Shown: positions 8,495 through 53,635 of the stretch, piece after piece | How the letters are laid out: every line of letters begins with the position of its first letter | How positions within the stretch are numbered: the stretch's first letter is position 1 | NCBI GenBank assembly: GCA_964016885.1 | Contig: OZ024743.1 | Location: 118,420,001-118,484,000, forward strand | From: Eledone cirrhosa | Lineage: Eukaryota | Reading direction: 5' to 3' | DNA: 64,000 nucleotides | Made by a program: the position numbers and the translations under genes | The notes under the pieces: generated by a model | What the model was told of the DNA's origin: nothing | Databases searched by the model: none | The model's input: only the letters and a program-made list of their open reading frames with translations

Positions 8495-9495
8495 ATATAT
8501 AGGAGCAAATCATGGAATAGCTTAAATAGGACTAAACATAAGATAGGGAAAGCCTCCTCATTGTACGACAACCAGAGATACCAGAGTGTCATGTTCGTGG
8601 ATTCTACCCCTGGAGGGAAATGACCTAACCGATGTAGCAAGGCCCTAAGAAAGACCAATTTAAAGATTAAAGTGGTAGAAAAACCAAGACATACGCCTTT
8701 AAGAAAACCCACTGTACAAATAAGAAATATGTTAGAAGTAAAATGAATCTGCTATAAGTAAAATGAATCTGTAAAACTAGAAATGTAGTTTATAGCATAA
8801 GATATAATGAGGGTACTTGCAGAAACATGACCACGCCATATATAGGTGAGACATCTCGAAGCATAGGAGAAAGAATAGACCAACACCGGGGGGAACTAAA
8901 AGGACAAACAAAAAAAACGGTTCAGTACTATATGAACACGCCAGACAAAGACATGGCCATAATATAGACAACATAGAAATTAAAATAATATCTAAACATA
9001 GAAATGACTCACTCTACAGGTAGGCAAATCAGAGAAGCCACTGAGATAGGACTAAGTAGACCGAAGTTAAACAGAAAAAACGAATGGAATAACAAGAACA
9101 ACCATAACCAAACAAACAATACTGACTTAAGGGAAATATAAATAAATATATACACAAGTGCAATAACCACAAACACATATAAGCACACACTAGTGAACAA
9201 AGATAGAATACAAAAACAAACACGCACACACTCAAACATATGCGCAGGGACAGATACAAGAATAAATAAATAAATGAAAATAAAAATGCCGTAGACATAC
9301 AATACAACAGGAGGAAAAAACTGATGATGTTGCAGATGTGCAACGAAAGAACTTTGATAGACTATATATATATTTATATCTGTATTTTTAACCGCTGGTC
9401 AATCAATGATAAACATTGATTGCCAAATAAATTAACTATGGAAATATAACAGATACAGAAACGAAAACCAACCCAAACATTGAGTGTGTTCTGTT
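8495..9495 (+). mobile_element. PLE 3' portion (linker, GIY-YIG endonuclease, 3' UTR), pseudogenised
   Basis: Manual translation gives YRSKSW..SVMFVDSTPGG..IKVVEKP, CKTRNVVYSI..CRNMTTPYIGETSRSIGERIDQH and QIREATEI..PKLNRKNEW. HHR-like core CTGATGAt-gttgca-gatg-tgcaac-GAAA at 9321-9348. Confidence 0.8.
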
Positions 9496-9730: not shown

Positions 9731-10222
9731 TCGTGTTCCCACATAGCGATATGCATATAAATGTACGCATTCTATATTGAATAATATACGGGATGTTTAT
9801 GAAAATCATTTGTAGAACTTACGCTATGAATGTTAAGGTTGTGACCAACGTTACGTACCCAGCTTCAGCAAAAGCAGGAGGAAGTAGGAAGTAATGGAAG
9901 ATGCCACCGTTTGTCACTTCTTAGTGGTTTTCAAGACTATTATATCTCCCCGCGTTTGCTGAAGCTAAACTAAACTAGATTCTTATAGAATTCTGCTTAT
10001 GTTTATGTATGACACGTAGTATTCCACAAAATTGCTTGCCCAAGCAATTCACCTGGTTGAGAAATGAGAAACTTGCCCATAATCTCAGAAGACCACCCGG
10101 GTTTCCTATCATATGTATTTGCGCGCGCGCGCGTGTATGTGTGTTTGTGTGTGTGTGCGCCTGCGTGTGTAGTATTTATATATAGCATTTATCCTTTTGA
10201 TTAATAAAAGGCCTCGGGCGCA

Positions 10223-10294
10223 CCCGAACTACGCCGATGTCCTGTAATTCAGCGCCGAAACATCGGATCGGGAAACATTTACAGCTGACGATGG
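10223..10294 (+). ncRNA. Candidate non-circularly permuted hammerhead ribozyme (family A)
   Basis: Stem III ccgatgT/Acatcgg, GUC site 10239-41, stem I ctgtaa/ttacag, GAAA 10257-60 before CTGACGA 10285-91, outer helix cccga/tcggg. Confidence 0.65.
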
Positions 10295-10390
10295 AAACTC
10301 CTTTCTTCCTTTCTCCTCCTGTTCCGTCCTAACCACAATCCTAAACCTTGTTTTTAGTAACCACACAAGTCTTTTCGTTTCATATAATTT

Positions 10391-10993
<603 letters not shown>

Positions 10994-29643: not shown

Positions 29644-30882
29644 TAATTAATATAAAAGATGATGCTCAGCCAGTTCGTCAACAACCATCGCAGCACGCCG
29701 TGTTTCGTTGGCGTTATTCAGCCAGCTCCTCTTCAATCATGGAGGCACGTCGTCGCCTCTGAAGTTCGGCGTTCCGATGGGGCTATTCAGCCCGTTTTTC
29801 TTCATTCCTGGCTGCACGCCGTCGCCGCTATAGTTCACTGTTTGATAAAGTCGAATTGCTTTTATTATCAGTATTCATTTCGAGCAATTGTCAAAAAATG
29901 ACACAATAATATATATAAAAGATGTCTGTCAATGTAAAAAAAGGTCCCTATTCACTCCTTCACAACTCTGTGTATGTTAGACTGACAGACAGGCTCACAG
30001 ACAGTAAACTGCGTGGCGATTGTGGAACGCCCCACGTACACACACATACACGCATGGAAACGCGCACACGCACGCAAACTTACACACGCACCCGTGCACT
30101 TACACACATTTACACACTCACACATGTTGATAGTTTTTACTTTCTGTGGAGCGCTACACGCACGCACACACACATAAATATACGCGCACGTACATACACA
30201 CGCACACATGGCAATAGTTACAGCGTTCTCTTTGCCTCTCTGTTTCTTACTCTCCCCTCTCACTTCCCTCATTGGCATTATGTGTATTAATTTAAGTTTG
30301 GCGTCGTTGAGGTGGGCGGAGTCGTTTGAAACCTACGAACCAATGATAATCGAGAATTATGACACACGGAATACTGATGTTGTTGAAATTAATATATAGA
30401 TATATATGACATAATATATGTCATCCGTTGTTCTAAATTGACTTATATTAATGTTAATTAAAATCTATTGATTCCTATAGTTTATGCTAACAAACACCAA
30501 ATTGGTAAATAAAATAACTTACAGTCGGTATATTCCTATGAGAAGAAACAATTATCAGTGATTAAATATCTTCTTCAATTTTTAATTTTAGTATATAAGC
30601 ACATTGAGTATAGTGCATAATGTAGAAAATAATATTTTTAAGAAGGTTAAGACAATGCAGAATGGATGATAGAATTTATTTTAGATGAAGACAAAGAAAA
30701 AGTTTGTATCCTGTTATGTATTATTGTATTGGTTTTCGTCCTAATATTTCAGGATTTAAAAATCCCTTCCTCAGAGTTCCCCCACCCCCCACATATATAT
30801 ATATATATATGTGTTGTTTACTTGTCTCACTCGCTTTACGCGATTCACTTGTCCCAATAGCTTATTTTAGTTATTGCTCGCA

Positions 30883-30950
30883 CCAACCTGAGGTATATGA
30901 TTTTTAATGCGATGAAATACCAATGATGGTTGGCAAATCACTGATGAGGG
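30883..30950 (+). ncRNA. Candidate non-circularly permuted hammerhead ribozyme (family B, copy 1)
   Basis: Stem III ggtaT/Atacc, AUA site 30895-97, stem I tgattt/aaatca, GAAA 30914-17 before CTGATGA 30941-47, outer helix ccaacc/ggttgg. Element spans about 30810-31010 between (TA)n tracts. Confidence 0.65.
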
Positions 30951-31008: not shown

Positions 31009-31164
<156 letters not shown>

Positions 31165-52990: not shown

Positions 52991-53635
52991 ATATGTGAAA
53001 AATATGGGGAGAAGAATACTGCATGGTTGCACATGGATAACATGTTATAAAATGAGTCCCTCATCAGTGATTTGCAAACGGTCATTGGTATTTCATTGCA
53101 TTAAAAATCATATACCTCACGTTGGTGCAATAATAACTAAAATAAGTTATTAGGACAATTAAAACGCGTAAAGCGAGTGAGACAAGTAAACAACACAGGG
53201 GAAAGCTAACCGAAGATAGGAAGAAACACAAGCTACATAGTTATTCTATCAGTATAAGCTGGGTGAATATATGAGCGAGTAAAGAATAGACCTTTCGCAA
53301 TGAATCCGATGTAAGAAAGAAGGAAAATCGTTTTCGTAGCGAACGGGGGAAGTGAGAAGGGGAGAAACACTGAGTGAGTGAGTGGAAGTGCGAGGAAGAG
53401 GTCAGTAGAGAGAAAATGTTAACTGACATGACAGAGGGGGCGAAAGAAAGTAAGAGAAACAGAGAGAACGAGGGAGCAGTAAGAGAGAGAGAGAGAGAGA
53501 AAAACAGTATCGCAGTTTAGGTAAATATATGTGAAAAATATGGGGAGAAGAATACTGCATGGTTGCACATGGATAACATTTTATAAAATGAGTCCCTCAT
53601 CAGTGATTTGCCAACGGTCATTGGTATTTCATTAT
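52991..53635 (-). mobile_element. Family B element: 536-nt unit plus partial tandem copy; permuted HHR at 53058-53125, partial copy at 53595-53633
   Basis: About 108 bp repeated at a 536-bp offset (TCATCAG at 53061 and 53597). Reverse complement of 30810-31010. (TA)n on both sides. Confidence 0.8.

Follow-up and report, generated by a model that had tools for sequence, protein, structure and literature searches.

The hammerhead ribozyme is built from three blocks, C, G and S, whose order defines types I to III (CGS, GSC and SCG); type SGC is a non-circular permutation that requires pseudoknots, and type CSG was represented by only two reported sequences (Eckert 2023, PMC10085705). The type-SGC RNAs, HRIMA-1 and its variants, come from metatranscriptomes, where they occur beside hairpin ribozymes, and their in vitro cleavage rates are 0.007-0.19 per min (Eckert 2023). 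Hammerheads are also known from retroelements. Minimal type I hammerheads lie near the 3' end of the unit in Penelope-like pseudo-LTRs (Cervera and de la Pena 2014, PMC4209133), and the non-LTR retrozymes, with non-coding monomers, tandems, one hammerhead per unit and a proposed Penelope-like origin, were defined and searched by type I hammerheads only (Li, Clavereau and Pollet 2026, 10.64898/2026.07.22.740005). Penelope-like elements typically form partial tandems and inverted truncated copies and are truncated at the 5' end (Craig 2021, PMC8557442). The Naiads are described in that study as preferring (TA)n targets and as having no canonical hammerheads; some of them hold halves of the core, 35-50 nt apart, "on either side" (labelled 'HHR_core' and 'HHR_half_core'), and the same study suggested that hammerheads might merely parasitise Penelope-like elements.

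The window, by which we mean the whole 64-kb stretch of Eledone cirrhosa DNA analysed here, contains a motif at 10223-10294 with the hammerhead features CUGANGA, GAAA, the A15.1-U16.1 pair and an NUH site. Its blocks follow each other in the 5'-3' order S-G-C (site, GAAA, CUGANGA), which makes it type SGC (Table 1). An earlier note had described a permuted hammerhead at this place, and all the features that it listed, pairings included, can be read base for base; its proposal of a cut after C10241 agrees with hammerhead numbering, and the (TA)n tract that it placed about 100 nt downstream begins 103 nt beyond the motif. The note gave no name to the permutation, nor did it identify the class of the host element or a connection with Naiads. 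The outer helix P0 is shorter in this copy than in the majority type of its repeat family. Directly past the TA tract lies the 3' part of the reading frame of a LINE (window 10430-10870, minus strand), which we take to be RTE-like.

Table 1. Coordinates in the window of the SGC motif, of its host repeat and of the two related motifs (pairings and the cut-site base are read directly; the cut itself is predicted).
Feature	Position	Strand	Details
5'-truncated family A copy	10193..10396	+	last ~200 nt of a ~820-nt non-coding, pyrimidine-rich unit
Upstream hairpin	10214..10227	+	can sequester the 5' arm of P0 (competing fold, predicted)
Outer helix P0, 5' arm	10223..10227	+	partner 10268-10272; 5 bp
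Block S	10234..10247	+	stem III strand 10234-10240 (with 10260-10266; 7 bp, A15.1-U16.1 pair included); GUC site, C17 = 10241, predicted cut after 10241; stem I strand 10242-10247 (with 10279-10284; 6 bp)
Block G	10255..10266	+	CC of stem II 10255-10256; GAAA 10257-10260; partner strand for stem III; stem III closes a 19-nt loop
Outer helix P0, 3' arm	10268..10272	+	
Block C	10279..10294	+	stem I partner strand; CUGACGA 10285-10291; extra U 10292; GG 10293-10294, giving a 2-bp stem II
(TA)n tract	10397..10429		at the element's fixed 3' end, likely insertion target
Family B SGC motif	30892..30947	+	distant homologue; element ends at a (TA)n tract at 31012
Second family B SGC motif	53061..53116	-	partial copy ~540 nt upstream (partial tandem)

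The motif shares with the type-SGC RNAs of Eckert 2023 the block order, the core, stems I and III and the short linker that ties the S strand of stem I to the G block. This linker is typically 3 nt in the published RNAs, whereas it measures 7-10 nt here. A second difference concerns the bracing of the fold: the published RNAs need a stem I-II interaction helix, whereas here P0 extends stem III and stem II has only 0-2 bp. No interaction helix was found by eye, and the 3' tail carries no conserved pairing in the alignment described below. The third difference is the setting, environmental RNA in one case and animal genomic repeats in the other; the terms 'octopus', 'cephalopod' and 'Metazoa' are absent from the searched parts of that paper and its supplement, although host lists in other formats could differ from this term search. 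The Penelope-type hammerheads of Cervera and de la Pena 2014 likewise have an extra base before stem II, but their order is C-G-S, their stem II is long and stem III is nearly absent.

An order-free descriptor for the three hammerhead blocks returned exactly three motifs in the window, this one and the two family B motifs, and all three are S-G-C. Among 2097 dinucleotide shuffles in 1-kb blocks no SGC match had a stem I of at least 6 bp together with a stem III of at least 5 bp, compared with three in the real window; at the loosest setting all the shuffles together gave three matches, again compared with three. Rfam found no match at the gathering threshold in the whole window, nor in 20 of the 80 Naiad loci discussed below; its canonical models are blind to the SGC order.

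Further evidence for the fold comes from the way in which its stems change. We aligned 48 of the 125 distinct motif copies from family A and its relative family C, picked for subfamily coverage and with truncated copies omitted. Of all cells, 92.3% are paired, against 32-45% (maximum 44.6%) when the partners are slid. Both sides have changed in four of the six pairs of stem I and in three of the seven pairs of stem III, there mostly at the distal end; stem II, two base pairs after one extra base, is paired in 97.9% and has no double changes. The covariation score is 0.281 versus 0.123 with shuffled partners, a value that none of 500 shuffles reaches, although relatedness can beat such a shuffle, the cells count copies and not events, and the independent events amount to a handful of subfamily splits. 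Family B variants show compensatory changes as well, with stem I, stem III and P0 altered together, and further double changes in stems I and III are seen in family B and in the Naiad motifs.

How well the pairings persist within family A was scored in 70 copies, with three more set aside as 5'-truncated. The core is kept in 59 of them and a full stem I also in 59, but only 35 have all the features. The earlier note, which named loss of the pairings in other copies as a refutation, had argued for a selected fold rather than chance, and had called for shuffled controls; the controls gave far fewer matches than the real sequence, and together with the covarying stem I they sustain its argument. 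A chance arrangement that was amplified by the spread of the repeat is therefore hardly credible and in our view largely refuted. Counts are indeed inflated by related copies, and one of the descriptors used for the Naiads below was tuned after motifs had been seen; on the other side stand the compensatory changes across subfamilies, the 248 genome-wide matches to a core pattern against 21 for its reversed control, and the first, untuned Naiad descriptor, which already gave four SGC matches, every one of them in a sense 3' UTR, with coding DNA free of any. We conclude that the window motif very probably represents a genuine RNA structure that has been conserved.

The motif lies near the 3' end of the family A unit, which is ~820 nt long when complete, consists of 72% pyrimidine and has no ATG-started frame of more than 77 codons. 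The 211 bases around the motif gave 1111 first-look candidates in the 3.0-Gb genome, and blocks G and C together were matched exactly at 472 genomic places, close subfamilies included, versus none for the reversed control. The family is also present in contigs from two sequencing runs (kind unspecified), which carry majority alleles only. On the 3' side the copies end at the same point, against a TA tract; their 5' truncation points are scattered, and they form head-to-tail partial tandems, with copies ~800 nt apart, as well as inverted truncated pairs. A non-coding unit, 5' truncation, partial tandems, inverted copies and microsatellite targets are traits of a non-autonomous Penelope-like element, and we read the host repeat as Penelope-like because this architecture matches the description of such elements in Craig 2021. 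The unit is similar in size to the monomers of the non-LTR retrozymes, but where these carry a type I hammerhead per unit family A has the SGC order.

Two further families carry the same fold. Family B yielded 1682 candidates, the best 40 of these 1682 being 99-100% identical, and has a tandem period of 525-545 nt; family C, with 1255 candidates, was exposed by the genome-wide core pattern. By BLAST family B has no apparent relation to family A, and the earlier note had called the two motifs sequence-unrelated, implying independent origins. Neither the label nor the implication survives the intermediates: family C has flanks in common with family A, the loci L064 and L195 unite B-type flanks with C-type cores, and through shared flanks and linker these intermediates connect A with B. 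As judged from their sequences, the three families form a single superfamily whose members have diverged. Since A and B are diverged homologues, the differences between their stems represent covariation and not convergence, and this makes them stronger evidence for the fold. At one locus (L182:1843-2396) a run of six 95-nt tandem repeats, which contain blocks G and C of family C but no block S, lies in the opposite orientation to a full copy. A 3.3-kb tandem that holds family B was considered as an autonomous partner and rejected, as it is a segmental tandem that includes an unrelated piece of a LINE.

What the structure does can be addressed less directly. The motif is probably a type-SGC hammerhead variant that cleaves itself, most likely slowly, after C10241. 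The hairpin of stem III and P0 would fold first, co-transcriptionally, with the cut site in its loop; the downstream strand could then pair back into this loop as stem I and bring CUGANGA to GAAA, and a pseudoknot with a 2-bp stem II would result. Bracing may come from P0, which in most cases leads into stem I with hardly a gap, instead of from the usual stem I-II contact. Cleavage would release unit-length RNAs from tandem or read-through transcripts, and the reverse transcriptase/endonuclease of a helper Penelope-like element would copy these RNAs into TA tracts. Several observations count against this reading, among them a stem II of 0-2 bp without covariation, a predicted competing fold, and the incomplete state of many family A copies. 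The first need not be fatal, because natural hammerheads with a 1-2-bp stem II are active (Perreault 2011). As to the second, a nested structure that pairs the GUC site with the core is favoured by ViennaRNA, a program unable to handle pseudoknots (-23.9 kcal/mol versus -13.2 kcal/mol for P0 and stem III alone), and adding 16 upstream bases lowers the probability of stem III to near 0.

The vestigial stem II and the predicted competing fold would also agree with a structure whose main role is in recognition or priming by the helper reverse transcriptase, with the core kept and cleavage slow or dependent on host factors. Metazoan Penelope-type minimal hammerheads are reported to be only weakly active in vitro (Cervera and de la Pena 2014). 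Of 87 5' truncation points in family A, scattered over the unit, just two fall at position 667, close to the predicted cut site (669). However, CUGANGA, GAAA, the A-U pair and a cleavage base other than G are constant in all 24 motifs that we tabulated, rows that were selected on those features and that omit three representatives which failed the descriptor (L120, L136 and L137), while the stems vary freely. Twister-like or CSG motifs, identified by eye, apparently fill the same slot in other Naiads, which fits a slot for cleavage. We therefore consider a role restricted mainly to recognition unlikely.

Still less probable, in our estimate, is a ribozyme that is active only as a strand-swapped dimer, in which the S-G hairpin receives its block C from a different copy or molecule and no intramolecular pseudoknot forms. 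Partial tandems do place two motifs on one transcript, a dimeric mode of action has been suggested for Penelope-type hammerheads (Cervera and de la Pena 2014), and the link between P0 and stem I is short. But the spacing of tandem copies is long, the monomer has a complete stem III, unlike the dimer-dependent minimal hammerheads, and the SGC RNAs of Eckert 2023 cleave as monomers.

The SGC fold, for which we continue to prefer self-cleavage as the function, has counterparts in the Naiads. Starting from a Naiad remnant in this genome, we collected full-length relatives, with GIY-YIG before the reverse transcriptase, and 80 metagenomic loci in 66 clusters. The second descriptor, the one tuned after motifs had been seen, found 12 SGC motifs, in 12 of the 80 loci, within 59.8 kb of sense 3' UTR; it found none in antisense UTR, in 368 kb of coding DNA or in 69 kb of upstream DNA, and nine matches in 2000 sets of shuffled sequence. 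The other 68 loci have no SGC motif, and many of their contigs end early. By eye the 12 motifs form about eight related groups. They are placed on several branches of the reverse transcriptase tree (FastTree, 87 rows, midpoint root, with a warning of long branches), which speaks to their spread only and not to its direction. As for stem II, 8 of the 12 give 0-1 pair after CUGANGA or need a 2-nt insertion, five give none, and the plain G10.1-C11.1 pair is absent or shifted in most. Across family A and Naiad motifs P0 has 5-11 bp, and often only 0-2 nt link it to stem I. A motif in S-G-C order with a full 5-bp stem II and a mismatched stem I was seen ~1430 nt after the reverse transcriptase match in L241.

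A minority of the published Naiads also show, by eye, the same fold. In the last 330-400 nt of 53 of the 54 Naiad consensus sequences of Craig 2021, inspected by eye, the S-G-C order with P0-like helices appears at six ends (two from Octopus, one from Euprymna and three from Acropora), and the published cephalopod Naiads have a similar P0 or stem I. Six nematode ends (Naiad-1/2/3_Nbra, Hcon, Hpol and Asuum) instead have, by eye, the order C-S-G, with a stem II of 4-6 bp, differences in all three stem sequences and a long helix flanking block C. Families A to C share with the Naiads described by Craig 2021 the (TA)n targets, partial tandems and inverted truncated copies; they differ from Naiads in having no ORF and no significant alignable similarity, by BLAST, to the 80 loci. 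From the shared fold and its position, the repeats may have taken their 3' module from a Naiad element.

Several Naiads in which no SGC motif was found have, by eye, other conserved motifs in the 3' UTR slot (L228, L245, L260, L263, L276, L277 and L289), and a similar motif was seen by eye in the same slot of bivalve or hemichordate consensus ends. We take these motifs to resemble twister. Other conserved structured motifs are present in L218, L243 and L233.

To the extent that these patterns can be read from sequence, the permuted hammerhead is likely the cutter that Naiads were thought to lack, and it offers a testable answer to the oddity, noted by Craig 2021, of Naiads without canonical hammerheads. 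We lean, with somewhat less confidence than for cleavage at the window motif, towards the broader view that non-circularly permuted hammerheads, far from being a curiosity of viroid-like RNAs, are a standard ribozyme at the 3' end of elements of the Naiad clade and of the non-autonomous elements derived from them. Cephalopods, corals and many marine lineages would then have a P0-braced SGC form lacking stem II, nematodes would have CSG, and in other groups twister-like motifs would take the same place. Animal genomes would contain thousands of active pseudoknotted hammerheads that canonical descriptors and Rfam have missed, and if Naiads carry permuted hammerheads or other ribozymes in the same slot, then self-cleavage looks generally needed by Penelope-like elements. 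The permutation itself is known; its setting in an animal retroelement, the reduced stem II with P0 and the connection to Naiads were not found in print, and our search, mostly outside the subscription literature, found no paper that links these permutations to Penelope-like elements. Type SGC, so far described from environmental RNA data alone, thereby gains many covarying examples in animal genomes, and animal genomes probably hold type CSG too, for which support has been thin. The motif is also a clear target for kinetics and structure determination, as a candidate natural hammerhead in which stem II is nearly gone and another helix may do the bracing.

Which element might act as helper in this genome was approached through its Naiad remnants. 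Their collected relatives have an N-terminal GIY-YIG. In this genome all Naiad matches are decayed, broken fragments with unreadable 3' ends and no intact motif there, in searches of which one used a stricter first look that may have missed an intact copy. Their decay contrasts with the near-identity of the best copies of family B, a young family. The end motif of the published Octopus Naiad had no match in this genome at two mismatches. A single-protein metagenome scan, a word-based protein search and a search of viral contigs likewise found nothing. Neptune- and Hydra-type fragments that lie beside some copies (L009, L017 and L106) were rejected as partners: TA tracts lie in between, and the Hydra-type end in L106 has a canonical-order motif of its own, so these fragments are better seen as neighbours at a shared target.

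Some Naiad ORFs of the collected set carry a C-terminal ubiquitin hydrolase (UCH) domain, as recognised by Pfam in P0039 and by eye in similar frames of L231, L237 and L238. Hammerheads in canonical order also occur in the window. The 3' fragment of a Neptune-type Penelope-like element at 8498-9490 (plus strand) has a minimal one at 9321, with an extra U before stem II, and further minimal cores of this order are located on the minus strand at 30774, 22351, 63167 and 63636, the last two in a 469-nt tandem.
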